Below, in pieces: positions 2,091-62,308 of a DNA stretch of 64,000 bases. Source of the stretch: an uncultured virus (IMG/VR IMGVR_UViG_3300048503_000069) (lineage: Duplodnaviria; Heunggongvirae; Uroviricota; Caudoviricetes); IMG/VR virus record IMGVR_UViG_3300048503_000069; one strand, 5' to 3'. Positions within the stretch are counted from its first letter, which is position 1. Each line of letters begins with the position of its first letter. A model generated the notes under the pieces. The model saw nothing but the letters and a program-made list of their open reading frames with translations, was not told where the DNA came from and did not search any database. A program made the translations under genes and the position numbers.

Positions 2091-2120
2091 AAGTCTTTTT
2101 AGCATTCTCTTAGCAAGAAA

Positions 2121-2950: not shown

Positions 2951-3100
2951 GAGCCTGCGTTCGAGGGCTGGGAGGTAGCTCTAGGCGATACTGACATTCG
3001 GCTGGCGCCGGTGTCGGATAGAGGGTCTCGCCGCATTCCGTCGCAATTGAATTAACCCCGTACTTCTCAGCCCTGGACAGTGCCAGGTTCTCTGATCGCT

Positions 3101-4522: not shown

Positions 4523-4613
4523 AATGCCAATGCAAGCATGAATGCCGATAGCAGTACAGTGCTACCGGTCACAGGATGCGCAAGCCGGCATCTGCTGCGT
4601 TATGCTTTAGACG

Positions 4614-4958
4614 ATGACCATCTCCAGGGAAAAGCTCTTGCTGCGGCAAATCGCGAAGGTGAAAGCGCAACTGGCGGCGCTCGGCGATCTGCGTCCGGGC
4701 AGCTTGTCGACGCAGTGGAACGTCTGCGGGACGCCGGGATGCCGGTGCAAGGCCACGCCGCCAGAAAAGCACGGGCCATACTATCAGGTCAGTTTTACGC
4801 GCAAGGGAAAGAGCAGTTCGAAGTTCGTGCGCAAGGAAGATCTCGCCGCCGTTCGCCGGGAACTGAAGAACTACGAGGTCATGAAGATGCTGATGGACCG
4901 TTGGATCGATCTGGCCACCGAACTATCCAACCTCCGCCTGGCCAACAAGCGCTCCTGA
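4614..4958 (+). CDS. IS-associated small protein (DUF6788-like)
   Basis: LRPGSLSTQWNVCGTPGCRC...HGPYY motif; inside the IS, divergent from the transposase. Confidence 0.7.
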   Translation: MTISREKLLLRQIAKVKAQLAALGDLRPGSLSTQWNVCGTPGCRCKATPPEKHGPYYQVSFTRKGKSSSKFVRKEDLAAVRRELKNYEVMKMLMDRWIDLATELSNLRLANKRS

Positions 4959-5355
4959 TCCCAACCGAGAACTTGGCACTGTCCAGCTCAGCCCAGTTGA
5001 TGATTTTAAACTGAAAGCTCAGAATGCGGAGACCGCTGCGCGGCAGCTTGCAGTGCGAGTTCTTTTAGGCTCTCGGTTCCATCTTAGTGACGAAGATTCC
5101 CTTTTGAACAATGGCGGCTATTTCTCGACCAGAGGCACGGAACCCTGCAATTGGATACAGCAATTTGCCGCCACCTGCAGTCTGAGGGAACGTACAGTCT
5201 CGTCCACCCTTACGGCTCCCGAACTTACTCCAGCAGTCCTGACAACTTGCGCGCGATATAGGCGAAGGCTGTAAAGACGCGGGCGGCTCTGCCGGTCGTC
5301 TGGTGCAGGACACGAGCCACAATGTCAGTTCCGCAACTCCCCGGCAGTCCACTTC

Positions 5356-5550
5356 TTATTTCGCTACGTCGATCTCCGGATATTTCCGCTTGACCGCCGC
5401 CACCACCGTCGCGTGTTCCGGCTTTCCGCTGGACCGGGCCAGCGCATCTCGCGCGTGCGCAGCGTCCTCAATCGGGTAGCGCCGCGTCTTCGGAAAGACA
5501 AAATCCCCTTTGGGCATTTCCTTCCGCTCCTCATACGTAAGCTTTGTCAT
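5356..5550 (-). CDS. Small hypothetical protein
   Basis: FVFPKTRRYPIEDAAHARDALAR motif; GGGAG RBS upstream. Confidence 0.7.
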   Translation of the reverse strand: MTKLTYEERKEMPKGDFVFPKTRRYPIEDAAHARDALARSSGKPEHATVVAAVKRKYPEIDVAK

Positions 5551-5851
5551 CGTGACTTCTCCCGCCCTTCCTGTTCCAGGCCTTGCTCACAGGTAGGATG
5601 GCCCCGGCCCACCCCGAGTTGCACCAGGGCCGCCGATTCGCACGCAGGCGTTTGGCAAGGGATTCGGTCATTACATCTTCAGATTTGACTTCCATGGGCC
5701 CAACGAAAATCTCGTTACGTCGTCCATATACGGGTAGCCAGGTTCCGGCGCCCAGGGCAATCGCATGAACGTCATGTTGATGAAAACCTCGCCGTCTGTG
5801 CCGCCCCTACAGGGCTAACTGGCTATTTCTGGCTCCTTTCCCCGCGCTTCA

Positions 5852-7344: not shown

Positions 7345-7381
7345 TGAAGCGCGGGGCTAACCACCGCTGTGCCTCCGGCAC
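7345..7381. repeat. REP-like element half (other half 5798-5851; related partial copy at 1-24)
   Basis: gctaaccaccgctgtgcctccggc resembles gctaaccaccactgcgcctacggc at the window start. Confidence 0.6.
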
Positions 7382-7513
7382 GATAGAAATCGGAACCAGT
7401 CTGGTCAACAAAATGGATTCATGCGATTGCCCTGCAAAAGGCTCGCGGCTTGGGCCAGGCGGCGCTTCCACGGGCTATACTCTCTTCTGTCTGATTTTGA
7501 AGGGAGCTTTCCG

Positions 7514-8884
7514 ATGTCTTCATTAGCAGTTGATTACGCCCGCCAGAACTACCCACGCTTTCTCGATGAGTTGAAGGCGCTGTTGCGCATTCCCTCAGTC
7601 TCAACCCTGCCGGAGCACAAGGGCGATTGCCGTCATGCCGCGGAGGTGCTGGGGGCCGAACTGACCCGCATCGGCATGGAGCACGCGCGGCTGATCGAGA
7701 CCGCCGGCCACCCGCTGGTTTATGCCGATTGGCTGCACGCGGCGGGCAAACCCACGGTGCTGGTGTATGGGCACTATGACGTGCAGCCGCCCGACCCGCT
7801 GGACGAATGGCTGTCTCCGCCCTTCGAGCCCACGGAGCGCGACGGCAACCTCTATGGACGCGGCGCGGATGACGACAAGGGGCAGGTGTATTCGCATGTG
7901 AAGGCGCTGGAGTCGCTGCTGGGGGCCAACGGGAAGCTGCCGTTGAACGTGCGCGTCCTGCTGGAGGGCGAAGAAGAGGTTGGAGGGGAGGGAATCAGCC
8001 GCTATGTGGCGTCGAAACCGGCCGAGCTGAAGGCGGACTTTGCGCTGGTGTCCGACACGGAATTGTTCGCGCCCGACCTGCCCACGCTGTGCGTCGGCCT
8101 GCGAGGCATGATCTACACGGAGCTCGAGGTGCGGGGCGCCAAGACCGACCTGCACTCCGGCATGTACGGCGGCGCGGCCCCCAATCCGTTCATCGCCGTG
8201 GCGCAGATTCTGGCCAAGCTCAAGGACGAGGACGGCCATGTTCTGATCCCCGGCTTCTACGACGACATCATTCCTCCCAGCCCGGAGGAACTGGCTGCCT
8301 GGAAGAGCCTGCCCTTCGACGAGGAGCAGTACCGCATTGCCGAGGTAGGCTCGCGCACACTGGTGGGCGAGGCCGGCTACAGCGTGCTGGAGCGGACCTG
8401 GGCGCGGCCCACGGTGGACGTACACGGCATTCCCGGCGGCTTCACGGGCGCGGGCGCCAAGACGGTGATCCCGGCCAAGGCGGTGGCCAAGGTCTCGATG
8501 CGGCTGGTTCCGGGCATGACGACGACCAAGGCTTTCGCGCTGTACAAGAGCTACGTGGAGAAGATCGCGCCCGCCGGCGTGGATGTGGAGGTGCGGCTGA
8601 TTTCCGCCGGCGACCCGTGCCTGATTCCGGTCGACAACCCGTACGTACGGGCGGCCACCCTCGCCCTGCATGAAGTGTGGGGCAAGGACACGGTGTTTAT
8701 CCGCTCCGGCGGGTCGATTCCGATCGTGGGGGACTTTGACCGCCATCTGGGCATCCCAAGCGTGATGATGGGCTTCGGGCTGCCTGACGATAACATCCAC
8801 GCTCCCAACGAGAAGTACCGACTGAAGAACTTCGCACTGGGCATCGAGTCCATCATTCGCTTTCTGGAGGAGGCTGGCGGTTGA
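7514..8884 (+). CDS. M20-family dipeptidase (ArgE/DapE-like)
   Basis: YGHYDVQP, GRGADDDKG, EGEEEVG, DLHSG, IHAPNE; start placed at ATG 7514 after GGGAG. Confidence 0.93.
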   Translation: MSSLAVDYARQNYPRFLDELKALLRIPSVSTLPEHKGDCRHAAEVLGAELTRIGMEHARLIETAGHPLVYADWLHAAGKPTVLVYGHYDVQPPDPLDEWLSPPFEPTERDGNLYGRGADDDKGQVYSHVKALESLLGANGKLPLNVRVLLEGEEEVGGEGISRYVASKPAELKADFALVSDTELFAPDLPTLCVGLRGMIYTELEVRGAKTDLHSGMYGGAAPNPFIAVAQILAKLKDEDGHVLIPGFYDDIIPPSPEELAAWKSLPFDEEQYRIAEVGSRTLVGEAGYSVLERTWARPTVDVHGIPGGFTGAGAKTVIPAKAVAKVSMRLVPGMTTTKAFALYKSYVEKIAPAGVDVEVRLISAGDPCLIPVDNPYVRAATLALHEVWGKDTVFIRSGGSIPIVGDFDRHLGIPSVMMGFGLPDDNIHAPNEKYRLKNFALGIESIIRFLEEAGG

Positions 8885-9171
8885 GCGAGGCAGCCCGCGA
8901 TGCGGCGCCGGACGCCGTGGGCTTTGTGCTGGCCGGAGGGCGGTCCAGGCGCATGGGCGAGGATAAGGCGCGGATCCGGCTCGGCGGCCAGCCGCTGGTG
9001 GCGCCATGCTCTGGGGATTTTGCGGAAGGCCGGTCTGGGGGCGTCTGTGGCGGGCGCGGGCTCGGTATTTGGGGCTCTTGCGCCGGTGGTGGAGGATGCA
9101 AAACCCGGCCTGGGCCCTTGGGGCGGCATTTGCGCAGCGCAGAGGGTCAGCAGCGGATTCTCATCGCGTAA
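8881..9171 (+). pseudogene. mobA: Molybdenum cofactor guanylyltransferase, frameshifted and truncated
   Basis: VLAGGRSRRMGEDKA in one frame; HALGIL...VVED..PGLGPWGGI continues in another frame after ~9003; C-terminal half missing. Confidence 0.72.
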
Positions 9172-9186
9172 GCTGATTTCACGGCC

Positions 9187-10038
9187 ATGTCCGATTCCGC
9201 ATCCAATCCGGAGTTCCCCGAGATGCTGCCTGAAGTTTCTGGCGCGGAGCTGGAGGCGACGGTTGCTATACCCGCAGATGAGCCCTCAGTCCCCATGATC
9301 TCCTTTGGCCACGTCTCCATGTGGTTTGACGAGCACCAGGTTCTGGATAACGTGAGCTTTACGGTGAACCGCGGGCAGACGCTCTGCATCCTGGGCAGAA
9401 GCGGAGTGGGGAAATCAGTGGTTTTGCGCATCCTGATGGGGTTTCTGAAGCCGCAAGTGGGCTCCATCCGGGTGGACGGCGAGGAGATCAACGGCCTGAG
9501 CGAAGAGGGAATGCAGGCCATCCGCAAGCGCGTCACCATGGTTTTTCAGAACGGCGCGCTGTTCGATTCGTTGAGCGTGCGCGAGAACGTGGCGTTTCCG
9601 TTGCGCGAGCGCGGCGGCCTGGCCGAGGAGAAGATCGATTGGATCGTGGCGCAATTGATTGGCCTGGTGGGGGCTGAAGACGCCGCGGATGCTTTTCCGG
9701 CCAGCCTCTCGACGGGGCGCAAACGCGCGGTGGCCATTGCCCGGGCACTGGCCGCGCAGCCGGAGGTGGTGCTCTACGACGAGCCAACCACCATGGTCGA
9801 CCCTATAATTGCCCGGCGTCTTGGCGACCTGATCCAGCGGGCCAAGGACCAGCTTGGGTTCACCAGCATCGTGGTTACGCACGACATGCGTCTTGCCGGG
9901 CGACTCGCCGACCAGGTACTGTTCCTGGATCAGGGCCGAGCCCGGTTCTATGGGCCGCTCAAGGGTTTTCTTGACTCCCGCGACCCGGATATTCAACAAT
10001 TTCTTACGTTGGACGCGTACATATTACCGTCGGAATGA
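9187..10038 (+). CDS. ABC transporter ATP-binding protein (MlaF/Ttg2A-like)
   Basis: Walker A GRSGVGKS, VFQNGALFDSL, LYDEPT, VVTHD. Confidence 0.9.
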   Translation: MSDSASNPEFPEMLPEVSGAELEATVAIPADEPSVPMISFGHVSMWFDEHQVLDNVSFTVNRGQTLCILGRSGVGKSVVLRILMGFLKPQVGSIRVDGEEINGLSEEGMQAIRKRVTMVFQNGALFDSLSVRENVAFPLRERGGLAEEKIDWIVAQLIGLVGAEDAADAFPASLSTGRKRAVAIARALAAQPEVVLYDEPTTMVDPIIARRLGDLIQRAKDQLGFTSIVVTHDMRLAGRLADQVLFLDQGRARFYGPLKGFLDSRDPDIQQFLTLDAYILPSE

Positions 10039-10615
10039 GTTGTATACCAACTAGTAATCGTTGAATCTAAAGATTTTTCTTGCCAATGTCCGGGAGTTTG
10101 GGGCTATGCTTGAACTTCAGCTTTGCCGGAGGCCTGACAGAAAGAATTTGGGGAATGAGATCTTGGACGTGGGGTGCTTCGACCGGGCTCGTTTTGGTAG
10201 AATCTGCTTCGATCATTGGGTTTCGCCCCAAAGAGGACGGCTTTCAGAATTCAGTAGTTCTGTTTGGCTTTCATACCTTGGCCCTTATCCATTTGCGGTA
10301 AAATCAGCGCGCTTGCGGCAACAAAGTTCAGCTGACGGTCCACGACGACTCACCCCACCCCTCAGTCGCCGGGCGCCAGCGAAGGGTGACGCAGGATCCA
10401 AGAGTCGTGCGACGGCACAATCAGGCCAGCACGGCTCACCACAAGGAACGAGGCGGGTTGCATTTTGACCGGCAACCCAAGACCGTAAAAAGAGTCGAAC
10501 GAAAAATTAGTCCACATATCACTGGGCGCGATTTACTTTCCTCCCACAGCTCGTTGGTGGGAATTTTCCCAAGGTATCCCCGTCGAATTGGACGTTTGAG
10601 GTCTGCGGAACGCAT

Positions 10616-12133
10616 ATGGCGACATCGGATTTCTGGCAACGGGTATCGGCTTCTGTTTCTTCTTCTTCTGAATGGGCGGGCGCGTCAGCAGAAGCCCCTG
10701 CGCGCAACTCAAGGGGCACGGCCAAGTTGTGGATGGTTCTGGATGGCATCACCATCCTCGGGTCGGCGATGCTAGCCACCCTGTACGAGATGCATAAGGG
10801 GCCGGTGACCGGGGTAAAAGGCTTCTGGCATGGCACGCTGATTCATGGCCGTTCGATGGGCATCCTGCTGGCGCTTCTGTGCGGATTTGCGGTGTCGCTG
10901 ATGATGACCAGCCGGCGGTTGCATTTGTACACGCCCATACGGCTGACGAGCTTTCTGCGTGAGCAGCGGCTGAGCGTGCAGGCCTGCTTCACCTCCGGGC
11001 TGCTACTTACCGGGACGCTGTACCTGATTCATGCCGAGGACATTCCGCGCAGCATCGTGCTGATCACGGTGGGTCTGGTGACCATCTTGCTGAGCCTGCG
11101 GCGGCTGGTTTACCGGATGCTGATCTACCGGCGGTTCGAGCGCGGCGTGGGCACCCGCAACGTGCTGATCGTGGGCACCGGACCTGAGGCGCAGGCACTC
11201 CGCCTTCACCTCGAGAACCTGCGGCATCTGGGCTACACCTTCAAGGGCTTCATCGACTTTCCGGGCTCGGGTTCCCGCTTTAAGACGACCTCCGGCGATG
11301 TTGTGGGCACGCTCGATACGATGTTCCAGGTCGCGCGCAAGCAATTTGTGGATGAGATATTCTTTACCAATCCCTGCGCACGCGGGATCGTGCAGGAGGC
11401 ATTGGCGCAGGCGCGGACGCAGGGCGTGGATCTGCGCGTGGTTCCCGACTTGTACGACGGCCTGGCATGGAACAGCCCCATCGAGTACATCGGCCAGTTC
11501 CCCACCATTCCGCTGCACTGCGGCCACGTACCGGAGATTGGCCTGCTGCTGAAGAGAACCATGGACATCGTGCTCGCGACCCTGTTCCTGATCGTGATTT
11601 CTCCCGTATTGCTGGCGATCGCACTGGCGGTGCGGCTGGATTCGCACGGCCCGGTGTTCTACTTCTCCGAGCGCCTCGGCAAGAAGGGCCGCGTCTTCCG
11701 CTGCATCAAGTTCCGCACCATGGTTCGCGACGCGGAGAAGCGCCGCGCCGACGTGATGCACATGAACGAGCGGGACGGGGTGTTGTTCAAGATCGCCAAC
11801 GATCCGCGCATCACCAAACTGGGCCGGTTCCTGCGCAAGTATTCGCTGGATGAGCTGCCCCAGTTCTTCAATGTGCTGCGCGGCGACATGAGCATCGTCG
11901 GCCCTCGTCCGCCCATTGCCAGCGAGGTTAAGGAGTACGAGCTGAACCACCTGCGCCGGCTGGACGTGACGCCGGGCATCACCGGTCTGTGGCAGGTGCA
12001 AGCGCGCCAGGACCCGTCGTTCGACAACTATATCTCGCTGGATGTGACGTACATCGAGACCTGGAGCATCTGGCTGGACCTGAAGATCATCGGTCGCACC
12101 GTCGGCGTGGTGTTGGCGGGAACGGGCTCCTGA
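10616..12133 (+). CDS. Priming sugar transferase (WcaJ/CpsE-like polyprenyl-phosphate hexose-1-P transferase)
   Basis: N-terminal TM helices; KFRTM, DPRITKLGRFLRKYSLDELPQ, VGPRP, PGITGLWQV. Confidence 0.93.
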   Translation: MATSDFWQRVSASVSSSSEWAGASAEAPARNSRGTAKLWMVLDGITILGSAMLATLYEMHKGPVTGVKGFWHGTLIHGRSMGILLALLCGFAVSLMMTSRRLHLYTPIRLTSFLREQRLSVQACFTSGLLLTGTLYLIHAEDIPRSIVLITVGLVTILLSLRRLVYRMLIYRRFERGVGTRNVLIVGTGPEAQALRLHLENLRHLGYTFKGFIDFPGSGSRFKTTSGDVVGTLDTMFQVARKQFVDEIFFTNPCARGIVQEALAQARTQGVDLRVVPDLYDGLAWNSPIEYIGQFPTIPLHCGHVPEIGLLLKRTMDIVLATLFLIVISPVLLAIALAVRLDSHGPVFYFSERLGKKGRVFRCIKFRTMVRDAEKRRADVMHMNERDGVLFKIANDPRITKLGRFLRKYSLDELPQFFNVLRGDMSIVGPRPPIASEVKEYELNHLRRLDVTPGITGLWQVQARQDPSFDNYISLDVTYIETWSIWLDLKIIGRTVGVVLAGTGS

Positions 12134-12596
12134 ACTTGCTGTGAGCTTCCCGGGCTTCATGGGCCGTCTCTCTAAGAGGCGGCCCATTTCAATTGGGGGA
12201 ACCCCCGGCTTTGCCGGGGTGGCAGTAGCAGTTTGACATTTACGGGAGTTTGACATGGGCCTGCGGCGCACCCATATGCATGAAAATCCGGGCTTTCCGC
12301 CCTGACTTTCGACGGAGTCTCTCCTCCCGGTTGTTCTCGCAAGAACGTTAGAAGGGCGCGGAGCATGAGCGCCGTCCCTTGTATGTTGCATTCAGAGGCG
12401 TGAGGATAGATTCACGTTTCGGCGGTAAGGCCGTCCGTCCCTTAGGCCAACCTTGGTTGAGCCTGTCCCGTAGATCGGCCGCCGCCCCTCTCTTCTTACG
12501 CCGTGGAGAATCGAAGGCCTTTTGAGCCTGCATGTTCAAGGTTGACGCAAAGAGTGAGTCCGTGTGCGCGGACAGGGGCGGCTGCCGAAGCTCATC

Positions 12597-14588
12597 CTAG
12601 CGCATGTTTGCCGTGGAGGCGTTTAAGTGGTTGAAATGATTGGAGCGATTTTTGAAGTTGGTCACTACACGAGGCATTGTTTGTTCTCCGGCGGTGGGGG
12701 TGGATCGATTTGAGTAATGCCGAGCGCGCGGAGCACTTCGGAGGCATGTTTGTTTCCGCGGGTGACGCAGGATTTGCTGCGTTGCTGGCCGAGATCGACT
12801 TCGACGGAGCGGATTGTTTCCAGAGCTTGCCAAGCAAAAGGCGAGGATAGTTGGCTGCTCGCGGAGCGCAGATTCTTCTCCAAGGCGCGATCCAGTAACA
12901 GCGCCAGCGCAGCTACGAAGACATGAGCCTGCACCCGTTCATCGGTGTGGTGATACACGGGACGGAGTTCGAGCAGGCTCTTGAGATGAGAGAATCCGCG
13001 CTCGACCTCGTTCAGTTCCTTGTAGGCGGCCACGGCCTGAACCGGGGATAGATTGCACTCCTCGGTCTGGATGACGTACTTGCCCTCCAGGGCCATCTCC
13101 CGGGCCAGGTTGGTGGGATGCTCGAAGAAGTGGAACTTGCCGCGGCGCAGTTCCCAGTCAAAATAGCGCTGGCCGTGATGGCGGCGCAGGCGGGTGGCGG
13201 CAGCGGCGCCGATCTTGTCGGCTCCCTTCAATTGCCCTGATTCCACTTGCGCTTTTAAGGCCTCGAGCTCTTTGCGCGCCCGCCCCATGGTCAGTTCCCG
13301 CATACTGCGCTCGTAGACTTCGCGCTCCTCACTGTGCACCACGAAGACCCGCACGCCGGCTTGCTTGCCCGCCACCTCGACTACCCGCGTCTGGGGCACG
13401 ACCATCTTTTCCGCGGCGGCGATGCCCACCGGACACTGCTGCCAGTCGGTGCGTGCTTCCGCCTGCTGGATATAGTCGAAGGTGTCCTTGCGATTGCGTC
13501 TCTGCAGTCCCAGCAAGTAACCCTGCTGGCTCTGCCGCAGCTGCTCCACGTTGCCCATGGTCATCATGCCGCGATCACCGACGAACACCACACGGTTCAG
13601 AGCAAAACGCTGGTTCAGATCCTTCACCACTTCCAGCACTGTGGTCTGGTCCAGACGATTGCCGGCGAAGACGTGATGGGCGACTGGCCATCCATCCATC
13701 ATCACCACCCCGATGACGATCTGCCGGTGGCGCGGCTTGCCGTCGCGACTGTAGCCGAATCGTCCCAACTCCGCCGGGCCGGCCCCTTCGAAGTAGGTCG
13801 AAGTAATGTCGTAGAAGACCAGGTCCGGCTGCAGGCTGAACAGATCACGCAACTCCAGGTAGATGGCCTTTTCGATGCGCTCTTTTTCGGCCAGCAAATC
13901 GTCCAGGCTCTGATACCACAGCTTCAACTGGTCGAAGCCCACCTTGACCCTGCCGGACTGTTTCCACACCGGCATCCAACGACTGCCCTGGGCCGTGCAC
14001 ACATAGAAATCTTCCAGCCATTGCGCCAGCGCGTGCTCGCTGCCCGGACGGCTGAGCCGGTTGGCAAGCAAGGGAAAGATCCTTTCCGACAGCGGCTGCC
14101 CATGGCGCCGGGGAGCCTGGCCGGCATCCAGGATAGCGCCCAAAGAGAGTTTCTCGAAAAGATGCCGGGCGACTAAAACCGGTCCCCAGGTGGAGGCGCG
14201 AGGAGTAGAGATGTCATCGACGGCAACCCAGCCCGGATTCCCTTTCGGCTCTGCCAGAAGCCGGATCAAGGCACCCAGGTGCGGAGTCAACAGGTCCTTG
14301 CGTCCCAGATGAGCTACGATGCGCTGCTTGACCTTGTCCCCTTCGCGAAACGATTCCACCAGGCGGAGATACTCCTGTTGGCCATTGCGTGACTTCACCG
14401 AGCGCAGAAACATGAGACAGGCTCCGAATGACACTACATATAGCGCATTCACGCCGCATAATCAATGATTATTTGCGCACTCAATCAAAATATGTTGGCA
14501 CTACACTTTTCGAAAATCCTCGCTACTGACGATGATAATAAAGGACTTAACTGCTTCCACCCCGCTTTCCATGGCAAACATGCGCTAG
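12597..14588. mobile_element. IS1634-family element
   Basis: IR ctagcgcatgtttgccgtgga (12597-12617) vs tccatggcaaacatgcgctag (14568-14588), 20/21. Confidence 0.88.
12665..14452 (-). CDS. IS1634-family transposase (start probably MFLRSV)
   Basis: FYDITSTYFEG, FGYSRDGKP, VGDRGM, YKELNEVERGFSHLKS..LRPVYH. Confidence 0.93.
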   Translation of the reverse strand: MNALYVVSFGACLMFLRSVKSRNGQQEYLRLVESFREGDKVKQRIVAHLGRKDLLTPHLGALIRLLAEPKGNPGWVAVDDISTPRASTWGPVLVARHLFEKLSLGAILDAGQAPRRHGQPLSERIFPLLANRLSRPGSEHALAQWLEDFYVCTAQGSRWMPVWKQSGRVKVGFDQLKLWYQSLDDLLAEKERIEKAIYLELRDLFSLQPDLVFYDITSTYFEGAGPAELGRFGYSRDGKPRHRQIVIGVVMMDGWPVAHHVFAGNRLDQTTVLEVVKDLNQRFALNRVVFVGDRGMMTMGNVEQLRQSQQGYLLGLQRRNRKDTFDYIQQAEARTDWQQCPVGIAAAEKMVVPQTRVVEVAGKQAGVRVFVVHSEEREVYERSMRELTMGRARKELEALKAQVESGQLKGADKIGAAAATRLRRHHGQRYFDWELRRGKFHFFEHPTNLAREMALEGKYVIQTEECNLSPVQAVAAYKELNEVERGFSHLKSLLELRPVYHHTDERVQAHVFVAALALLLDRALEKNLRSASSQLSSPFAWQALETIRSVEVDLGQQRSKSCVTRGNKHASEVLRALGITQIDPPPPPENKQCLV

Positions 14589-14603
14589 CGCCCCAGGAGG
14601 CTT

Positions 14604-14972
14604 ATGAGCAAGCAAATCGTTTCCATCGGCAAGTCTGTTTCTTCCTCTGACACATCAACGGAAACTTCAACCAACCCCCAGCAGGCAAGAGTTTTTTGTG
14701 GCATTGACGTCAGCCGCGAGTCTCTGGCCGTGGCCGTTCTCACGCCGGACCAACCCATCGAACAACGCGAGTTTGCCAACTCGGCCAGCGGCCACAAGGC
14801 GCTGATTGCCTGGCTGGGCAAGATGAAGGCTCTGGCGCGGGTCTCACTGGAGGCTACCGGCATTTACTCGATGGACCTGGCGCTGGCGCTGGATGCGGCT
14901 ACCGGAATCGAGGTGGCAGTGCTGAACCCCAAGCGGGTTCATGATTTTGCCAAGTCGATGATGCGGCGCTCA
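14604..14972 (+). pseudogene. IS110-family transposase, N-terminal part only, cut at the junction
   Basis: CGIDVSRESL, LEATGIY, VLNPKRVHDFAKSMMRRS; sequence switches just before the expected KTD motif. Confidence 0.85.
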
Positions 14973-15461
14973 AGCAAACCACTTCCCCATAGAACGCTTG
15001 TTTATGTTCAGCCGTTTTATCACACCTTCAATCGGGCGATGCAACACTATCTTGACGTTTCCTATCTTTGACAGCATTAAATCATCTGCTTTAAGAGCGA
15101 ATCCCATTTGTGGGTAGGTGAATGAATCATAGCGCCCTTTGCCTTTGAACCTCGGATAACCTGCTTCTTTCTCTCCTGCTTTGACACGTCTAAAGAACGC
15201 TTTGAAGGCTAAGTCCACACGTTGAGAGACTTCTTGTAGCACTTGCGAATGAACGCTTGTCAGCTCCGGTCTATCACGCTTCCATATTGGTATCAACTTG
15301 TTCGTGTCATATCTGCCAAGTGTCACACCCTTTGACTCATATGCGGTCTTTCGCGTGGCTAATACCTCATTATATACCCATCGGCACAACTCTAAGGTTT
15401 GATTCATCTTAGTTTCCTGTGCCTTTGTCGGATAGAGCCGATAGCGATAGACCTTATGCAT
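14970..15461 (-). pseudogene. tnpB: TnpB N-terminal fragment, truncated at the junction
   Basis: YRYRLYPT, CRWVYN, AFKAFFRRVK, GYPRFK; closely similar to 56332-57432; no RuvC. Confidence 0.9.
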
Positions 15462-18525: not shown

Positions 18526-18794
18526 TGTCTCAGCTCAAATACGACGATGTAATGGGTAAAGAGGCACAAGATAAGCTAACCGGGCTTAAAGGGATTATTG
18601 TAGCCGTAGGGGAATACTATAACGGCTGCGTTCAGTACCTCGTTAAACCGGCAGAGATAAAGGACGGTAAACGCATCGAGGGCGAATGGATTGATAGAGA
18701 ATTCTTAGAAATTCTCGGTCAGAAGCTCACACGCGAGAACGTTAAACCGGCCGGTGGTCCTAGTTCTAGTGACCCGCCGTTGGGTGTTATTTAA
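18525..18794 (+). CDS. Phage hypothetical protein
   Basis: DKLTGLKGIIVA..EYYNGCVQYLV pattern; overlapping start/stop. Confidence 0.7.
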   Translation: MSQLKYDDVMGKEAQDKLTGLKGIIVAVGEYYNGCVQYLVKPAEIKDGKRIEGEWIDREFLEILGQKLTRENVKPAGGPSSSDPPLGVI

Positions 18795-18795
18795 C

Positions 18796-18978
18796 GTTTC
18801 AGGCGGGAAGTCTCCTTCCGAAAGGTGGGAGATGAGAGCCGCTCTTATCCAACACAAACCTTTATAGTTATAGAAAACAATGAGGAACTATGAAATATCA
18901 ACTAAGCAAAGGCGCTCATTCCGTCTACGCACTCCAATACCACTTCGTTCAGTGTGTCAAATATAGGCGCGATGCTTT
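18796..18978 (+). mobile_element. IS200/IS605 remnant: left end plus tnpA 5' fragment
   Basis: TTAAC then gtttcagg and hairpin; MKYQLSKGAHSVYALQYHFVQCVKYRR identical to tnpA at 55931, then diverges. Confidence 0.85.
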
Positions 18979-19074
18979 GGTTGAGCCATGGCTCAGTGAG
19001 AACGATTATCCTGTCTTGAAAAAAGTAGACGGCGTTCTTAACTGGGAATGGGTTATGTGGCAACTTAGGCAATT

Positions 19075-19764
19075 ATGATAGACACAATAATCTGCGGCGA
19101 CTGCCTTGAGGTTTTAGAAGAGATGCCTGATAACTATGTGGATGCAATTATAACTGACCCCCCTTACTCAAGCGGTGCGCGACGTGACGCAAACGCGAAT
19201 CTGCGACAGGCGCGTCGTCGAGGGGAAGATAAGCGCGCGTTCAGCAATGATACACTCACAAGCAAAACGTTCGCGTGGTTTATGCGGGCGTGCGGCTTAC
19301 AATGGGCGCGCGTCTTAAAACCAGACGGCCATTTATTAATATTTATTGACTGGTATCACGGATATAATATAGCAAACGCATTAGAAACGGCTGGGCTGAA
19401 ACAGGTTAATTTAGTTGTATGGGACAAGCAGTACTTTGGTATGGGGCATTACTTCCGCAATCAGCATGAACTAATATTACATTTTTTAAACTACGAACGT
19501 CCAAAACCGTTTGCGCAGAACGTAGGAAACGTTATCTCAATAAAACCAATCCGTAACGGAATACACCCAACGGAAAAACCAGTTGAGTTGATAGAACGTA
19601 TGTTACCCGTGGTAACTAATGAATACGACACCGTTCTCGACCCCTTTGCGGGCAGCGGCACAATCGCAGTCGCATGCCGTCGCAGCAACCGCCACTATAT
19701 CTGCATCGAAAAAGAACCAGAATACTGCGCGATTGCTGAGAAACGAATCGCGGAGATGTTGTGA
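19075..19764 (+). CDS. DNA N6-adenine/N4-cytosine methyltransferase, beta class
   Basis: TDPPY, HPTEKP, VLDPFAGSGT in beta order. Confidence 0.93.
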   Translation: MIDTIICGDCLEVLEEMPDNYVDAIITDPPYSSGARRDANANLRQARRRGEDKRAFSNDTLTSKTFAWFMRACGLQWARVLKPDGHLLIFIDWYHGYNIANALETAGLKQVNLVVWDKQYFGMGHYFRNQHELILHFLNYERPKPFAQNVGNVISIKPIRNGIHPTEKPVELIERMLPVVTNEYDTVLDPFAGSGTIAVACRRSNRHYICIEKEPEYCAIAEKRIAEML

Positions 19765-32106: not shown

Positions 32107-32721
32107 GTGCGGCCGGAAGAAATAATGAAATCAATAAAAAAAGAAAAGAGACTAACTAAAAAAGAGCAGCTTCAAAAAAGAAGATATGATTTTTGGAGAC
32201 TTATGTCTCACGGCGCAACTCTAGCCGACGCCGTTAAGATGATTTCAGAGAAATACGGTGTCGGTAAAGCCGTTTTATATAGCGATTGGGCTAAACGAGA
32301 GGAATGGGGTGTCGTCGAGGAACCAGAGAAAAATAGAATAGTAAAAGATGGTCTGTTTTCATTACAAGAAACAAGACGTTATCTTTGGAATCTTATTAAC
32401 GCTTCACCAGAACAGCTTAACGAAGACGGGGTATTAGTCGACTCTCGAGGCGTGCCGATGTGGCCGTTTGAATTACCAGATGTTAAGTTAAGAGCTACTA
32501 CGATAGCGAAGATTATAGAAACAGATTTCGCGGTTATCCGAATGACGCAAAGCATAGGCATCGTTCCGCAAAAGGGAATGACTATTTCTATGTTATCCGA
32601 AAACTCTGCTGAAATAGAAAAGAACCTAGACGCGTATTGCGGTGACGATGTAGAGCTAAAAAGAGCGGTATTAGTCGCACTCGATACGATGGCGAGGGGT
32701 GTAAGTGGCGAAGACTCCTAA
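32107..32721 (+). CDS. Putative terminase small subunit (HTH)
   Basis: HTH-like N-terminus; overlaps the TerL ATPase gene. Confidence 0.5.
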   Translation: MRPEEIMKSIKKEKRLTKKEQLQKRRYDFWRLMSHGATLADAVKMISEKYGVGKAVLYSDWAKREEWGVVEEPEKNRIVKDGLFSLQETRRYLWNLINASPEQLNEDGVLVDSRGVPMWPFELPDVKLRATTIAKIIETDFAVIRMTQSIGIVPQKGMTISMLSENSAEIEKNLDAYCGDDVELKRAVLVALDTMARGVSGEDS

Positions 32722-33583
32722 ATACACACTAAAGAAAAGACCGCGCGGTAGGCCGCGTAAAGAGAAACCGGCAGCGAAAGAGAAGAAAGAATACTCTACC
32801 GATGCAGTTCGTTATCTAAAGTATAAGATGGCCCCGGACGTGTGGGTAGAAGAAAACTATGATATAACGCTCGATTCGTGGCAGAAAGAAGCATTAAACA
32901 CCCAATCGAATCGCCTACTACTTAATTGTTCAAGACAGGCGGGAAAATCGACCGTTGTTTCTCTATTAGCGCTACACCATGCGTTATTTACACCTAAAGC
33001 ATTAGTCCTCGTCGTCTCACATACGGATATTCAAGCGAAAGAAACGTTTAAGAAAATAGCCGATAGCTTCCACGACCTAAAGACCGAATGGTATAAAAGC
33101 GAAGTAGACACCGTTTATGAGATTAGGTTTAACAATAAAAGTCGTATCATAGCACGAACGGGACAACAACCAGATAGCTTACGAGGGTATAGTGGTGTTA
33201 CGCTTTTAATCATCGACGAAGCTGCATCAGTTTTAGAAGAAAGTTATATGGTTCTTAAACCAATGCTTGCCGTCTCGAAAGGAAAGGTAGTTTTGCTTTC
33301 TACGCCTAAAGGTAAACGAGGTTTCTTCTATGATGCGTATAAAGACGCGCACGAGAATAACCGAGAGAGCTGGCATTACTTAGAAATAAAAGCCGACGAT
33401 TGTCCTAGAATCACGCAAGAATACTTACTAAGTGAAAAAGAGCGCAATCCCGATTGGGTATTCGAGCAAGAATACTATTGTGTCTTCATTTCGAATGTGA
33501 GCAACATTTTTCCAAACGTTGCCGACTTATTTATAGAAATGCCCCTAGACGACCACTGGTCATTCGATTTAGACTTGGATTAA
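32705..33583 (+). CDS. Terminase large subunit, ATPase domain only
   Basis: LDSWQ, SRQAGKS, LIIDEAA, LSTP..G.FY, EQEYYCVF, then stop. Confidence 0.88.
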   Translation: MAKTPKYTLKKRPRGRPRKEKPAAKEKKEYSTDAVRYLKYKMAPDVWVEENYDITLDSWQKEALNTQSNRLLLNCSRQAGKSTVVSLLALHHALFTPKALVLVVSHTDIQAKETFKKIADSFHDLKTEWYKSEVDTVYEIRFNNKSRIIARTGQQPDSLRGYSGVTLLIIDEAASVLEESYMVLKPMLAVSKGKVVLLSTPKGKRGFFYDAYKDAHENNRESWHYLEIKADDCPRITQEYLLSEKERNPDWVFEQEYYCVFISNVSNIFPNVADLFIEMPLDDHWSFDLDLD

Positions 33584-54094: not shown

Positions 54095-54556
54095 ATGGTA
54101 AAAAGAAGCGCATATCAAGCGCGAAAGAATAGAATGTACGTTCGTTGTAAGAAATGCGATAGCTCCTTTATGATAGAGCCGTTTGAAGCGCATGCACATT
54201 GTCCTACTTGTGGATGTATGCGAGTAGCATTTAAAGTTAAACCATTTGACCGCATAACTAGAGAAGAGTATAAAGCGAACGAAGCTAGAAATAGAGATAA
54301 AGGTACTTATTTTATATTATGTAGAAATGGTGGAAATCCAGATTATGTAAAAATTGGAAAGGTTGTAGGCAATATAAAGGCCGCACAGAAAAGGGTTGTG
54401 AAGTTACAGGTTGGTTGTCCTTATGAGTTAGTCTTACTAAAATTTACACGTAATTTAAATGAACTAGAGACTCAAGAGAAATTTAAAGAAGATTTAATTC
54501 GCGGTGAATGGTTTGCGTACACCGAAGAACTACGTACTTTTATAGATAATCTATAG
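54095..54556 (+). CDS. GIY-YIG (T5orf172-like) nuclease
   Basis: YFI..VKIG..RV..LQVGCPY..GEWF. Confidence 0.78.
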   Translation: MVKRSAYQARKNRMYVRCKKCDSSFMIEPFEAHAHCPTCGCMRVAFKVKPFDRITREEYKANEARNRDKGTYFILCRNGGNPDYVKIGKVVGNIKAAQKRVVKLQVGCPYELVLLKFTRNLNELETQEKFKEDLIRGEWFAYTEELRTFIDNL

Positions 54557-54814: not shown

Positions 54815-55213
54815 ATGTGCTATGTAATGAAACCAATTGTAATTAGTGAAATAACGTATCGTAAAATGAATGAACTAAAAATAGAATTATTCTCGAAAAG
54901 AGGCGTACAATATACTTTTGATAGGCTTATACGAGAATCCATTGGGTTACCACCGGATGAAGTCGATGCGCGTAAAAGAGGGAGTAAAACGTATTTTATT
55001 CTATGCGATAATTTTATAAAAGTTGGTAGTTCCGATGACCCTAAATCGCGCCGTACGCTGTTACAATGTGGTAATCCTTATAAGTTACATTTATTAAAAG
55101 TAGTTGAAGAGGATATTGAAAAAGAAGTTCAAGAAAAATTCTATCATCTAAGAACTAACGGTGAATGGTTCTACTACGATGATAAATTAAAAGAGTTTGT
55201 TGAGAGTATCTAA
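54815..55213 (+). CDS. GIY-YIG (T5orf172-like) nuclease
   Basis: YFI..IKVGSS..LQCGNPY..GEWF. Confidence 0.78.
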   Translation: MCYVMKPIVISEITYRKMNELKIELFSKRGVQYTFDRLIRESIGLPPDEVDARKRGSKTYFILCDNFIKVGSSDDPKSRRTLLQCGNPYKLHLLKVVEEDIEKEVQEKFYHLRTNGEWFYYDDKLKEFVESI

Positions 55214-55555
55214 CATAGTTATATATAGTTAAACATAGTATAACATATTGTCGAAAGACAAAACGAGCGGCGCTCGAGCGTGAAATCGAGCGCGGTCAAT
55301 TTAGGAGACGATGGAGGGTGCTATAGATGACGCACGTGGTAACGGAAAAAGTGACATACAAACCAAATAAGACAAAACGAAATTGGGACGGTCTACCGTA
55401 TCTAGAAGGACATTTTAAGCTCAGCGACGGCACGAATACGAAGTTCGCAGTCACGCACGAACAAAGCTGGCATCAATGGGGCAACTCGTATGATAACCTA
55501 GGAGTTACCATTGATAGAATCGAAGAACTAGAAGCAAAGTTACACGAGGGATATT

Positions 55556-55837
55556 ATGGATGAAACGGCTAAGAGACTATTAGACACGTTAAAAGAAACG
55601 ACTAAGAAAACAAAAAAGTTCAACGATGATATACGAACGTATTCGGTGGAACTCGATGAGGTACACGAATACACCAACCATATCATCGCGAACTACAAAC
55701 GAGAGATAAGTTTAGTAGTAAATGAATACGGTAAACCAGCGTTCGCTAATCCTGACTCGCGAGAAGGCGAGCTACAGCATCGACTCGATAACAACGAACA
55801 TTACGAAAGCTATCTAAATAAAACGAAGAAAGTTAAC
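55556..55837 (+). pseudogene. Coiled-coil gene interrupted by the IS insertion
   Basis: ORF runs into the IS left end at TTAAC. Confidence 0.6.
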
Positions 55838-55930
55838 GTTTCAGGTGGGAAGTCTACTTGCGAAAGCTGGTAGATGAGAGCCGTTCTTATACACCATAAA
55901 GTTTATAGTTCTATAAAACAATGATAAACT

Positions 55931-56326
55931 ATGAAATATCAACTGAGCAAAGGCGCTCATTCAGTCTATGCACTCCAATACCACTTTGTTCAGTGTGTAA
56001 AATACCGGCGAAACGCTCTTGCTAACTCAGAAGTCGTGGCACTACTCAAAGACAAGATACACGAAATAAGCGAGACGTTTGAGGTCGATGTGCTGAACAT
56101 AGAAGCCGATAAAAACCACTTTCATATGATATTCGCAGCGAAGCCAACGCTTGACATTCCACGATACATCAACGCGCTAAAGACAATAACATCGAGAGAG
56201 ATACGGCGAAACTTCCCCGAAGTCAAAGAAACGCTGAAACGGGGGACGTTCTGGTCTCGCTCGTATTTCCTAGCTACTACAGGACAAGTGACACTCGATA
56301 AGCTGAAACACTACGTTGAGAGTTAG
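55931..56326 (+). CDS. tnpA: Y1 HUH transposase
   Basis: YHFVQCVKYRR, NHFHM, FWSRSYF, HYVE. Confidence 0.95.
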   Translation: MKYQLSKGAHSVYALQYHFVQCVKYRRNALANSEVVALLKDKIHEISETFEVDVLNIEADKNHFHMIFAAKPTLDIPRYINALKTITSREIRRNFPEVKETLKRGTFWSRSYFLATTGQVTLDKLKHYVES

Positions 56327-56331
56327 GGACG

Positions 56332-57432
56332 ATGAATAAAGTCTTTCGTTATAGGCTGTATCCGACCGCACACCAAGAAACGGTGATGAAGCAAACGCTT
56401 GAGCTGTGCAGATGGGTCTATAACGAAACACTGGCAACACGGCGCAACGCGTATGAAGCAACAAAAGACTTCCCATATTCTCGACACGTTTTGTATTCTC
56501 GATACGACACGCAAAAACTACTGTTGCTCTGGAAACAAGAACGACAGATACCTGTGTATTCTCAGGTGCTCCAAGAAGTTCAATATCGAGTAGACTTAGC
56601 CTTCAAAGCATTTTTCCGGCGGGTAAAAGCTGGAGAGAAAGCAGGATACCCGCGTTTCAAAGGTAGGGGCTGGTGTGATTCATTCACTTACCCACAGTCA
56701 GGTTTTGCTCTCACAGGTTCAACGCTACAGTTGTCAAAGATAGGTGATGTCAAAATCAAACTACACAGACCGATAGAGGGCGAGATAAAGCGGCTTAACA
56801 TAAAGCGCAGTTCAACAGGGAAGTGGTTTGCGTGTTTCACTGTTGACGGTTGGAGAGAGATACAAATAGCACCTAACAATGCTGCGGTTGGTGTTGATGT
56901 TGGCATAAATTCGTTTGCCACACTGTCAACTGGTGAACACATAGACAACCCACGTTTCTTTAGAGCTGAAGAAAAACAGTTAGCGAAAGCGCAGCGAAAT
57001 AAGGCAAAGAAGGTAATTCCGAAGATACACGAACGCATAGCGAACAAGCGGAGTAACTTCGCTCACCAGTTAAGCAGAAAGCTTGTCGATACATACGGCA
57101 TCATCGCCTTCGAGGACTTGAATATCAAAGGGATGATGCAAAACAGCCACCTAGCAAAGTCAATAGGCGATGTGGCGTGGAGTCAGTTCATCACATTCAC
57201 GAAGAACAAAGCTGAGAACGCTGGTTCAGTAGTGGTGATGGTTGACGCAAAGAATACAACTCAAGAATGTTCGAGATGTGGTCAGATAGTTCATAAAGAG
57301 CTGAAAGACCGCGTTCATTCGTGTGACTGCGGACTTGTCTTAGATAGAGATGAGAACGCGGCTAAGAACATACTCGGTCGTGGGCTAGCGACCGTTCGTG
57401 GAAACACGATAGAAGCTGCTTGCGTAAGCTAG
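56332..57432 (+). CDS. tnpB: RNA-guided nuclease TnpB
   Basis: RuvC GVDVG, AFEDL, DRDENAA; Zn finger CSRCG/CDCG. Confidence 0.96.
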   Translation: MNKVFRYRLYPTAHQETVMKQTLELCRWVYNETLATRRNAYEATKDFPYSRHVLYSRYDTQKLLLLWKQERQIPVYSQVLQEVQYRVDLAFKAFFRRVKAGEKAGYPRFKGRGWCDSFTYPQSGFALTGSTLQLSKIGDVKIKLHRPIEGEIKRLNIKRSSTGKWFACFTVDGWREIQIAPNNAAVGVDVGINSFATLSTGEHIDNPRFFRAEEKQLAKAQRNKAKKVIPKIHERIANKRSNFAHQLSRKLVDTYGIIAFEDLNIKGMMQNSHLAKSIGDVAWSQFITFTKNKAENAGSVVVMVDAKNTTQECSRCGQIVHKELKDRVHSCDCGLVLDRDENAAKNILGRGLATVRGNTIEAACVS

Positions 57433-57561
57433 TAGAGTAGTCACTGTCGAACTCGATGCGATAGAGATGAGAACGCGGCTAAGAACATACTCGGTCGTGG
57501 GCTAGCGACCGTTCGTGGAAACACGATAGAAGCTGCTTGCGTAAGCTAGTAGAGTAGTCAC
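57343..57561 (+). repeat. Perfect 102-bp direct repeat of tnpB 3' end/right end, separated by 15 nt
   Basis: 57343-57444 equals 57460-57561; spacer tgtcgaactcgatgc. Confidence 0.93.
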
Positions 57562-57900
57562 GGAGTGATGTAAAATGATAAAAGAAGTACCAAAGAAAAC
57601 GAAAGAATACGCACAGGACTATGTATCTATTATAATTCTCTCATTTATGGCGGTGGGGCTATTTATAGTCGAAATCGTCGGCGGAGAGAAACCCGTATCG
57701 AAGAAGAATAACGGAAAGAAGCATCTAAGAATATTCTAACGGTGAAACAAAAATGATAAAAAGAAGTGGATACTACTCAACGTTTCGTCTACAACTCGAC
57801 GAAAATGTAGGACTCGCGCTCTATGACGCCGCGAATAAGCATAACGTAACGCCGGACTATTATATCGAGAATTTACTCGATTCGTTGTTAAGGTAATATC

Positions 57901-58395
57901 ATGAAAAAAGTGATTATAGCCGCTCTAAGTGTTGCGCTCGTTGCGATATTTCTAACGGGTGCGGTATCGGCTCAGACACAGGTTAATACCTCTGTCACGC
58001 AGACTATTATCCAGAAGCAAGTGATTAACGGCTGTAACGTTAAGCCAAAGCCGAGAATTGCGACATCAATCTACGGTAATCCTATGTTTAACGCGAATCC
58101 GACCGTTGTATACAATAGAGCATCTGTAGGATGGGGATTCGAGGTCGTTCCAACGGGACAAGCGAAGGTACTCTCCGTTCCGGTTACCGTAACCGTGGAT
58201 AGCTCAATATACTGGTGGACGCAGGGTAAAGTTACACAAGTAAAGGGCGGAACTGAAACGATTGCGTTTACGTTGCCAGCGAAATCAACGGCGTGTCTCG
58301 CTCTCGGTAAGCACACGCTTATCGTGAAGTTCGCAGGTAATAGTCAATACGCACCGTCGACCGCGACATTTAACTTTTGGGTTCTAAAGCAATGA
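57901..58395 (+). CDS. Secreted protein with Ig-like domain
   Basis: Signal peptide; GKHTLIVKFAGNSQYAPS. Confidence 0.7.
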   Translation: MKKVIIAALSVALVAIFLTGAVSAQTQVNTSVTQTIIQKQVINGCNVKPKPRIATSIYGNPMFNANPTVVYNRASVGWGFEVVPTGQAKVLSVPVTVTVDSSIYWWTQGKVTQVKGGTETIAFTLPAKSTACLALGKHTLIVKFAGNSQYAPSTATFNFWVLKQ

Positions 58396-60339: not shown

Positions 60340-60831
60340 TTGATAAACTTTAAACCTAAGCCGTGTAAGAGCTGCGAAGTAGTATTTATTCCTCGCGGTA
60401 ATAACCAGAAGTATTGTGACGCGTGCGCGAAAGAAGTTAAACTGATTAGTAATAGACGCAACGAGCTTAAGTATAGACTTAACCACCCCACTGAAAAACG
60501 CGTAAGAGATAGTAACTATTATCAAACGCATAAAGAAGAAAAACTTGCTCGTGGAAACGAAAGGCGGCGCTTGTTAAGGATTAAAGTTCTTTCTCATTAC
60601 GCTAACGGTACGCCAAAATGTGCGTGTTGTGGCGAATCTCATATTCAATTTTTAGGGATAGACCATATAGACGGTAATGGTGGAAAACATAAAGCTACAA
60701 TAAAAAGACCCGGTAATCAATTCTATAGTTGGTTAAAGAAGAATAATTTTCCAAGTGGCTTTCGGGTTTTATGTCATAATTGTAATCTATCTTTAGGATT
60801 CTACGGTTTTTGTCCCCACCAACAAAGGTGA
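60340..60831 (+). CDS. Zn-finger HNH endonuclease, family A
   Basis: CACCGESHIQFLGIDH..CHNCN..YGFCPH. Confidence 0.85.
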   Translation: MINFKPKPCKSCEVVFIPRGNNQKYCDACAKEVKLISNRRNELKYRLNHPTEKRVRDSNYYQTHKEEKLARGNERRRLLRIKVLSHYANGTPKCACCGESHIQFLGIDHIDGNGGKHKATIKRPGNQFYSWLKKNNFPSGFRVLCHNCNLSLGFYGFCPHQQR

Positions 60832-60886
60832 TGTGGCTACAAGCGGTAGCGAACGCTTAAAAGCTCTCGCAAGCTTTTAATACACG

Positions 60887-62308
60887 GTGGCACAATCCGC
60901 TCAGCGAACGCTATTTAGACGACTTGCCGATAGTGTAACTTTTAGACAACGAGCAGGTATTCAACAACTAAATCAAACGCCGAGTAGCGACCAAGACGTT
61001 CTCGCGCGAATCGTTGGCGACCAAGTTACTGCTTCTATAAAGCGAGATATTCCCGCGTATCTAAAAGCATTTGCCGAACTACCGTGGTTACGAACCTCGG
61101 TGACAAAGGTAGCTAATTCTATTGCTCAGAACGATTGGGACATTCGTTTTGTTCGACGCGAGCCGAGCAAAACCGGCGGCATGGACGTCATAGAAGAAGA
61201 GCCACAGAACGTTATCCCGCTTCAAGATTTTATTAATAATCCTAATTCTAATTTTAGCTTTCAACAGCTTATTTGGCTTACGCAGGTCTATTTAGAACTC
61301 GTTGGCGAAGCGTTTTGGTGGATGGTGCCAATACAGAGCGTAGTACAAGCGTATCCTATCTCGCCCGGTAAAGTAGTTAGAACACCGACCGCTGATGAGG
61401 CGTTTTTTACTATTTCGGGGCCGAAGGGCGAATTTAGAATCGATATGGATGAGATGATATGGTTCGCTCATCTAGACCCGGCCGACCCGTATTCTCGAGG
61501 CGTAGGTTTAGCACAATCACTTTCTCACGACCTCGACACTGACGACGCTGCTTCTCGTTATGTATTAAGCTACTTTAATAATCAAGCTCGGCCACCACTG
61601 CTCATTTATGGGGAAGGGCTTAACGCAGAACGGGTGAGACAGCTCGAAGACGATTGGAACTTACAGCATCAGGGCTTTTGGAACGCTGGTAAAGTTCGGT
61701 TCTTAAGTCGAAAAGTCGAGATTAAAGAACTAAGTCAAAAGTTCGAAGGCGCGGATATTGTAAATCTACGACAGCATCAAAGAGACGTCGTAGCTTCAGT
61801 TATTGGCGTACCGCCTGAGATACTTGGTATTCTTCAGTCGTCGAATCGAGCAACTATAGATGCAGCCGACCTTTTCTTTTCTCGTTACACGCTTCGACCC
61901 CGACTTGACTTTTTACAAGAAGTTCTTAATAAACAATTAATCCCCCGGTTTGACGACACTGGCGAATTAGTAATGCTCTACGTTAATCCGGTGCAAAAGG
62001 ATAAAGACATAATTCTAAAAGCGGCTCGATTTATGCCGAGTGCGCTTATGATTGACGAATGGCGAGCATTAATGGAATACGACCCGTTACCCGATGGAGA
62101 TGGTGAATGTTTCGTTGTACCAATTAACGTGCAGGTTCTCTCTAGTCTAAAGAAAGGCATTGTGCAGGTTCCGGCCGTCGCGCCACCACCGCAAGCCGGT
62201 AAAGAGGCATATGGTGAGACTCAAACGCCGTTCGGAAAGATTCGCGGTAAGAAGACGAAGCGACTCCGCGATTTAGAACGATACACACGACGACCGAGGA
62301 AACAATAA
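60887..62308 (+). CDS. HK97-family portal protein
   Basis: NPN..LELVGEAFW, YFNNQARP, IGVPPEILG, IDEWR..PLPDGDG. Confidence 0.9.
   Translation: MAQSAQRTLFRRLADSVTFRQRAGIQQLNQTPSSDQDVLARIVGDQVTASIKRDIPAYLKAFAELPWLRTSVTKVANSIAQNDWDIRFVRREPSKTGGMDVIEEEPQNVIPLQDFINNPNSNFSFQQLIWLTQVYLELVGEAFWWMVPIQSVVQAYPISPGKVVRTPTADEAFFTISGPKGEFRIDMDEMIWFAHLDPADPYSRGVGLAQSLSHDLDTDDAASRYVLSYFNNQARPPLLIYGEGLNAERVRQLEDDWNLQHQGFWNAGKVRFLSRKVEIKELSQKFEGADIVNLRQHQRDVVASVIGVPPEILGILQSSNRATIDAADLFFSRYTLRPRLDFLQEVLNKQLIPRFDDTGELVMLYVNPVQKDKDIILKAARFMPSALMIDEWRALMEYDPLPDGDGECFVVPINVQVLSSLKKGIVQVPAVAPPPQAGKEAYGETQTPFGKIRGKKTKRLRDLERYTRRPRKQ

Follow-up and report, generated by a model that had tools for sequence, protein, structure and literature searches.

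Does a TnpB element with two guide-RNA ends in a tailed virus represent a first step toward a guide array, the scar of a single repair event, or an error of assembly? We examined this question in a window of 64,000 nt, the whole stretch of DNA that was analysed, from an uncultured virus of the Caudoviricetes (IMG/VR record IMGVR_UViG_3300048503_000069). The original prediction had described the locus as one TnpB with two guides, resembling an early CRISPR array. Our analysis indicated an ordinary, probably active IS200/IS605 element, which carries a strain-specific duplication of its right end; the reality of this duplication is uncertain.

An intact IS200/IS605-family element lies 3' of TTAAC

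The locus is an intact IS200/IS605-family element, with a Y1 TnpA and a TnpB, placed 3' of TTAAC in the genome of a tailed virus (Table 1). The tailed virus was recognized by its large terminase (32705-33583), its portal protein (60887-62308) and a Mu-F-like protein. The Y1_Tnp match of TnpA covered profile positions 1-119 of 121, and HFH and SYF motifs, presumably with the role that they have in Y1 transposases, are visible in the translation. TnpB residues 2-353 matched the ISDra2 TnpB structures 8bf8, 8exa and 8h1j (E 1.8e-45), a full-length match, and TnpB shows the RuvC triad and zinc ribbon of the IS605 group. Its D189, E261 and D340 aligned with the ISDra2 RuvC residues D191, E278 and D361, the last of which is the third residue of that triad. 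D191 and E278 are named as residues of ISDra2 TnpB in PMC8612924.

TTAAC preceded all three left-end junctions that we found (window 55838, a remnant at window 18796, which corresponds to L003, and L129), which supports TTAAC as target site and inferred TAM. The motif is not depleted in the window (179 observed vs 173 expected). The right flank of the element is not TTAAC, so the insertion is without target duplication, and the ends are formed by hairpins, not by inverted repeats. The left ends of L129 and L003 were 85-86% identical, with compensatory changes in the hairpin (CTAC..GTAG vs CTCC..GGAG). The right-end hairpin covaries as well; subterminal hairpins are thus present at both ends.

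The best match of TnpB among named phages was 51.5% identical and came from a Caudoviricetes record listing a Methanosarcinales host. No near-identical DNA was found among named phage records. A search of GTDB genomes with the right-end pattern gave 0 matches, and hence no host copy of the element was identified.

The remnant in the window is a decayed left-end copy (18791-18969) that comprises TTAAC, the left end and about 26 tnpA codons, 88% identical to the intact element. It runs into unrelated sequence (ORF 18890-19078), before a DNA methylase gene (19075-19764). Elsewhere in the window, two adjacent ORFs (54095-54556 and 54815-55213) have similar C-terminal halves and an exact 12-mer in common; ORF 54815-55213 gave a Pfam MUG113 match (E 1.6e-6).

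Table 1. Features of the element and its surroundings, in window coordinates.
Feature	Coordinates	Strand	Remarks
TTAAC target site, inferred TAM	55833..55837	+	directly 5' of the left end
Left end (LE)	55838..55930	+	subterminal hairpin at about 55854-55873; resembles the right-end (RE) hairpin region
tnpA, Y1 (HUH) transposase, 131 aa, intact	55931..56326	+	PF01797 Y1_Tnp, E 6.2e-36
tnpB, RNA-guided nuclease, 366 aa, intact	56332..57432	+	Pfam HTH_OrfB_IS605, OrfB_IS605, Cas12f1-like_TNB
Predicted core omegaRNA scaffold, copy 1	57327..57444	+	stem-1-like helix, pseudoknot strand, three hairpins (all predicted)
Repeat copy 1 (A1)	57343..57444	+	last 30 tnpB codons and right end
15-nt filler x	57445..57459	+	first guide of the original prediction
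Repeat copy 2 (A2), true outer right end	57460..57561	+	without the 16 nt equivalent to 57327-57342, of the predicted stem-1 5' strand
Flank y, guide of the outer right end	57562..57577	+	includes ribosome-binding site and start of gene 57575-57739
CTAAG, then TGTTGCGCTCGTTGCGATA	57925..57948	+	window version of the likely source of x; signal-peptide region of gene 57901-58395

The right end is present in two identical copies

A repeat search of the window identified a direct repeat of 102 nt, 100% identical between its copies, with a start-to-start spacing of 117 nt; the 15 nt between the copies were designated x. The final 30 nt of the repeat occurred twice in the window and 0 times in 100 shuffles. 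Both copies terminate in ..GTAGTCAC, and their flanks are unlike each other, with TGTCGAACTCGATGC.. after copy 1 and GGAGTGATGTAAAATG.. after copy 2. To place the right end, we aligned the final 260 nt of the window element with those of 12 relatives (11 related loci and the second tnpB of G001, the nearest record, which was used for comparison with the window). TCAC was terminal in 13/13 aligned right ends and AGTCAC in 11/13, and beyond the end the flanks were unrelated. The invariant TCAC and the loss of similarity beyond it indicated that both repeat copies stop at the true transposon right end, which is the scaffold-guide boundary. Thus, the anatomy first noticed at this locus, an intact tnpA-tnpB followed by repeat, 15 nt, repeat and new flank, with each repeat stopping at the right end, was recovered at the same coordinates.

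The junction of copy 2 with the outer flank, designated y, is the same as that in contigs with a single right end, and the y flank is identical in L005, L006, L125 and L126. Within the window, y matched only itself at up to 2 mismatches.

Predicted structure of the guide-RNA scaffold

The last ~118 nt of the element are predicted to specify its guide RNA, with the DNA beyond ..GTCAC supplying the guide. RNAalifold analysis of 13 sequences gave 25 predicted pairs, 17 of them with compensatory changes. Three covarying hairpins occupy the last ~88 nt (57375-57394, 57396-57409 and 57416-57435), all within the repeat. RNAalifold also paired 57343-57345 with 57440-57442 (-102..-100 with -5..-3), in columns that are invariant or show wobble changes only. 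According to section 9 of PMC10097598, the ISDra2 pseudoknot joins -105..-103 with -5..-3, and its strand sits in the loop of stem 1; the pairing predicted here mirrors that pseudoknot.

The minimum-energy fold in the native context contained a further helix, 57327-57341 with 57347-57361, whose 5' strand lies outside the repeat. In this stem-1-like helix, 72.8% of the alignment cells were paired, compared with 29-46% when the partners were slid. It showed no real covariation, and its changes were one-sided and in conserved codons, indicating pairing potential in coding sequence only. In ISDra2 a stem of this kind belongs to the guide-RNA core; by analogy, its 5' strand is probably missing from copy 2. 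If the stem-1-like helix is real, copy 2 would be short of 16 nt of the core scaffold and copy 1 would be complete. The earlier suggestion of a 5'-truncated second scaffold is plausible in the light of this predicted helix and the ISDra2 architecture described in PMC10097598, at the level of pairing potential. For other TnpBs, PMC10278001 lists processed scaffolds of 79-466 nt, one of them 106 nt long, and by this measure 102 nt may suffice. No Rfam family matched 55500-58000, even with E values up to 10 allowed.

Spanning contigs of the same strain carry one right end only

A search with the right-end sequence located three loci in IMG/VR and two in metagenomes. L005 (3975 nt), L006 (2626 nt) and L125 (1023 nt) contain tnpB and a single right end, followed by GGAGTGATG.., and L126 (526 nt), whose first base lies 26 nt inside the right end, reads on into this flank as well. 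Once the 117 nt are taken out of the window, each of the four is contained in it without a mismatch. The same-strain contigs from other samples that span the site therefore have a single right end in 3/3 cases. Over 55400-57444, G001 showed 100% identity to the window, but its contig breaks off precisely where copy 1 does, at 57444. Among the related elements, a right-end 14-mer sought over 600 nt, with up to 3 mismatches allowed, recurred in 0/11. The duplication is therefore confined to the window assembly, and no substitution has arisen since it formed.

L132, a relative with 60% identity, has a second occurrence, 28 nt further on (2630-2675), of the terminal 6 nt of its right end together with 5 nt of flank (AGTCACCGCGC). 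This recurrence is a miniature right-end/flank duplication.

The window assembly contains a probable chimeric joint

Window 14971-57444 corresponds to G001 37530-80483, save for a 488-nt indel at window 38971. The indel involves G001 61522-62010, and its surroundings are 99.9-100% identical. Window 1-14970 has ~60% GC and no counterpart in G001, which has 42-49% GC throughout. The joint, at about 14966-14971, passes in mid-ORF to viral DNA of ~43% GC, and at this point G001 continues with 37.5 kb of viral DNA. It cuts an IS110-type transposase ORF (14604-15071), in which the Pfam DEDD_Tnp_IS110 match ends at residue 125. A second tnpB, without tnpA, is likewise cut by the joint after 163 codons (window 14970-15461, minus strand) and is intact in G001. 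This second tnpB has about 68% DNA identity to the main tnpB and is found at about 1501-2636 of L002, minus strand; its right end in G001 reads ..AGTCAC and then GCCCCGCC.. The joint at about 14970 is probably a chimeric contig join, and consequently the assembly is not to be trusted blindly and an artefact at the doubled right end is a serious rival explanation.

The ~60% GC part of the window also encodes a 595-aa DDE transposase (12665-14452, minus strand). On the other side of the genome comparison, window 60586-60843 is 81% identical to G001 39888-39623 in inverted orientation. The match pairs a segment just upstream of the portal gene with the G001 region adjoining the second tnpB, and could represent a dispersed repeat.

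No perfect target for either guide in known siblings

We searched the window and G001 for x at up to 2 mismatches and found no match besides x itself. The exact 15-mer occurred at at least 118 loci in IMG/VR, and it was preceded by TTAAC or GTCAC at 0/118 among the IMG/VR matches listed. The pattern [G/T]T[A/C]AC+x (KTMAC+x) had 0 viral matches. In GTDB it had 12, all in unrelated bacteria (8 TTCAC, 3 GTCAC, 1 GTAAC and 0 TTAAC), and none of these 12 had the right end before x.

For y, the exact empty site GTTAAC+y had 0 matches in IMG/VR. Two siblings free of the element, L163 and L164, encode an upstream gene with 95% protein identity (250/274 at the DNA level). In both, 97 nt (2777-2873), the last 32 codons of the upstream gene, lie between the left flank and y; the window counterpart (55829-55837 / 57562) is without those 97 nt, suggesting that the neighbouring DNA, as far as the right end, was lost during or after insertion. 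In these siblings y is preceded by TTTAA. Hence the known IS-free siblings contain no perfect TAM-plus-target for x or y. It had been proposed that the guides might be used against IS-free sibling viruses, and that TTAAC plus each guide should be sought in related viruses. Such a search gave none for x and TTTAA for y; in the known siblings neither guide adjoins TTAAC, and the proposal was not supported.

Origin of the 15-nt filler

Extended by GATA, the first four nucleotides of copy 2, x forms a 19-mer that matched L163/L164 at position 3231 with 17/19 identities. The homologous window site (57930-57948) lies 368 nt beyond the outer right end and matched with 15/19. The x-like site is preceded by CTAAG, which agrees with TTAAC at 3/5 positions, in register. 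A match of this quality was reached by 0/1000 shuffled 19-mers, both in L163 alone and across the 246 kb scanned; this 19-mer test was picked only once the match had been seen. With the 15-mer alone, 3/1000 shuffles did as well in L163 and 147/1000 over all DNA scanned. The x allele would place Glu and Asp in the signal-peptide core and is thus not obviously a functional allele. The exact x allele followed by GATAT had 0 matches in IMG/VR, and a degenerate search for the site pattern returned only the 4 known contigs. An element copy with flank x was not found in the IMG/VR, metagenome or GTDB collections. The original prediction had invoked microhomology (gatagag) between two nearby insertions. 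The part concerning a nearby flank was partially supported by the 17/19 sibling site 368 nt downstream; the microhomology itself is GATA (4 nt), not gatagag.

Several other sources of x were tried and rejected. A 12/15 match at window 55645 was at chance level, and the flank of the second tnpB reads GCCCCGCC.., not x. Left-end sequence or a tnpB variant was rejected by eye (6/15 to the tnpB bases replaced). The 97-nt segment of the siblings gave no significant match, 280/5000 and 1331/5000 shuffles being as good. A further conceivable route, an RNA-templated insertion from omegaRNA cDNA, would need blunt joins.

Repair scar, artefact or array

We consider the chances about even that the 117-nt addition is a very recent, unselected recombination or repair scar that arose via a second insertion of the element. 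We infer a second element copy, a break and a repair route as follows. A DNA end near 57343 would have been extended on a second copy of the element at another target; the likely one is the TTAAC-like sequence at the position 368 nt downstream, as carried by a sibling strain. DNA synthesis would have run through the right end of that copy and 19 nt of its flank (x plus GATA), and the extended end would then have rejoined at 57343 via the 4-nt GATA microhomology. The 17/19 match of x+GATA, together with CTAAG before that site, suggested this reading, in which a second insertion was the template for the extra right end and its flank. Its sharp left boundary and its right boundary, which is the transposon end of the family, fit a genuine element-flank junction from another insertion. 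Against the two-insertion route stand the failure to find an element copy with flank x, the presence of CTAAG instead of TTAAC, the lack of significance of the 15-mer alone over all DNA scanned, the acidic residues that the x allele would bring into the signal-peptide core, and the probable chimeric joint elsewhere in the assembly. If the route is correct, the complete scaffold would now bear guide x, and the homing guide y would stand behind a scaffold without the stem-1 5' strand. TnpA would be able to cut at either right end, and recombination between the 102-nt repeats would bring back the single-end form.

The extra 117 nt could also belong to no viral genome and have come from a chimeric read or from a contig end mis-joined at the repeat, an assembly or library artefact that we regard as possible, at well short of an even chance. 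It would account for a duplication seen in the window only, given the single right end in each of the three spanning contigs of the same strain. The end of G001 at 57444 and the start of L126 inside the right end indicate that assembly graphs branch here, and the joint of ~60% GC and viral DNA at 14970 means that at least one joint in the window assembly is suspect. An artefact explains less readily the positions of the two junctions, the first precisely at the end of the transposon and the second at 4 nt of microhomology, or the likeness of the filler to a nearby site. Blunt concatenation of contigs overlapping by k-1 was judged a poor fit, as it would need a 1-in-256 coincidence at GATA, and a de Bruijn (k-mer) graph should be unable to jump on only 4 shared bases unless reads hold the join. 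A real duplication by replication slippage, or by end joining with random filler, would make the likeness of x to the downstream site a matter of chance. The frequency with which shuffled 15-mers equalled x over all DNA scanned, the failure to find an element with flank x and the insignificant likeness to the sibling 97-nt segment are in line with such an origin. The 19-mer with GATA, which 0/1000 shuffles equalled, speaks against it, and a random event would in addition need to stop by chance exactly at the TnpA cleavage site. We therefore consider it unlikely.

The reading least favoured by the data is a functional two-guide proto-array, in which one TnpB would load both scaffolds and direct x and y against rival genomes. 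Several features are compatible with it: the three covarying hairpins and the predicted pseudoknot strand all lie inside the 102-nt unit, the processed scaffolds listed for other TnpBs in PMC10278001 include one of 106 nt, the predicted catalytic residues of TnpB are present, and PMC10691335 describes omegaRNA arrays and their emergence from duplicated omegaRNA segments. Yet the arrangement is unconserved, a second right end being absent from all three spanning same-strain contigs and all 11 relatives. No TTAAC+x was found in the window, in GTDB or among the IMG/VR matches listed; the nearest x-like sibling site has 2 guide mismatches and CTAAG for TTAAC, y is preceded by TTTAA in siblings, and copy 2 probably lacks the stem-1 5' strand. 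The identity of the two copies also leaves no time for selection to act. A functional array is thus highly unlikely, and the two-guide array of the original prediction was not borne out: we found no evidence of a selected or used two-guide system.

Relation to known systems and implications

The element resembles ISDra2 and IS608-type elements in its combination of a Y1 transposase with TnpB, its insertion on the 3' side of a constant five-base motif that is not duplicated, its subterminal hairpins at both ends, and a putative guide RNA that overlaps the 3' end of tnpB, with conservation dropping sharply at the right end. The predicted pairing of -5..-3 with about -102..-100 corresponds to a pseudoknot in ISDra2, as laid out in PMC10097598. 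It differs from these elements in three respects. The target and inferred TAM is TTAAC, not TTGAT or TTAC; the tnpB stop lies only 12 nt from the end, so that the predicted scaffold is almost wholly coding; and the window copy has a second, partial right end. PMC8612924 describes a homing role for TnpB, and cleavage by it at 15-21 bp from the TAM, whose sequence is that of the TnpA target.

Long-repeat omegaRNA arrays with sharp scaffold-guide boundaries, and a model in which arrays originate by serial duplication of omegaRNA segments, are described by Altae-Tran et al. (2023; PMC10691335). Like those arrays, which belong to TnpB and Cas12f relatives, the locus has direct repeats of the scaffold downstream of the nuclease gene and a sharp scaffold-guide boundary. 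Unlike those arrays, it has two repeats only, which are 100% identical, and one 15-nt spacer without a target; moreover, the element still appears mobile, with tnpA, and neither other contigs of the strain nor related elements show the arrangement.

The structure might also be a snapshot of guide capture, in which repair synthesis past the right end of one copy brings its guide into another copy as an internal, portable spacer between two scaffolds; as things stand, we regard this as decidedly improbable. If TnpA used the outer end, the captured guide would move with the transposon and TnpB would load both guides. If true, this would show in concrete terms how the proposed duplication of omegaRNA segments could give rise to arrays.

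If the duplication is an artefact, the locus is a warning that transposon ends can break and mis-join viral metagenome assemblies. If it is real, a single recombination step would have given a TnpB element both a foreign guide and a second scaffold, with the same strain without the duplication at hand for comparison. Published models of how omegaRNA and CRISPR arrays arose take such raw material for granted.
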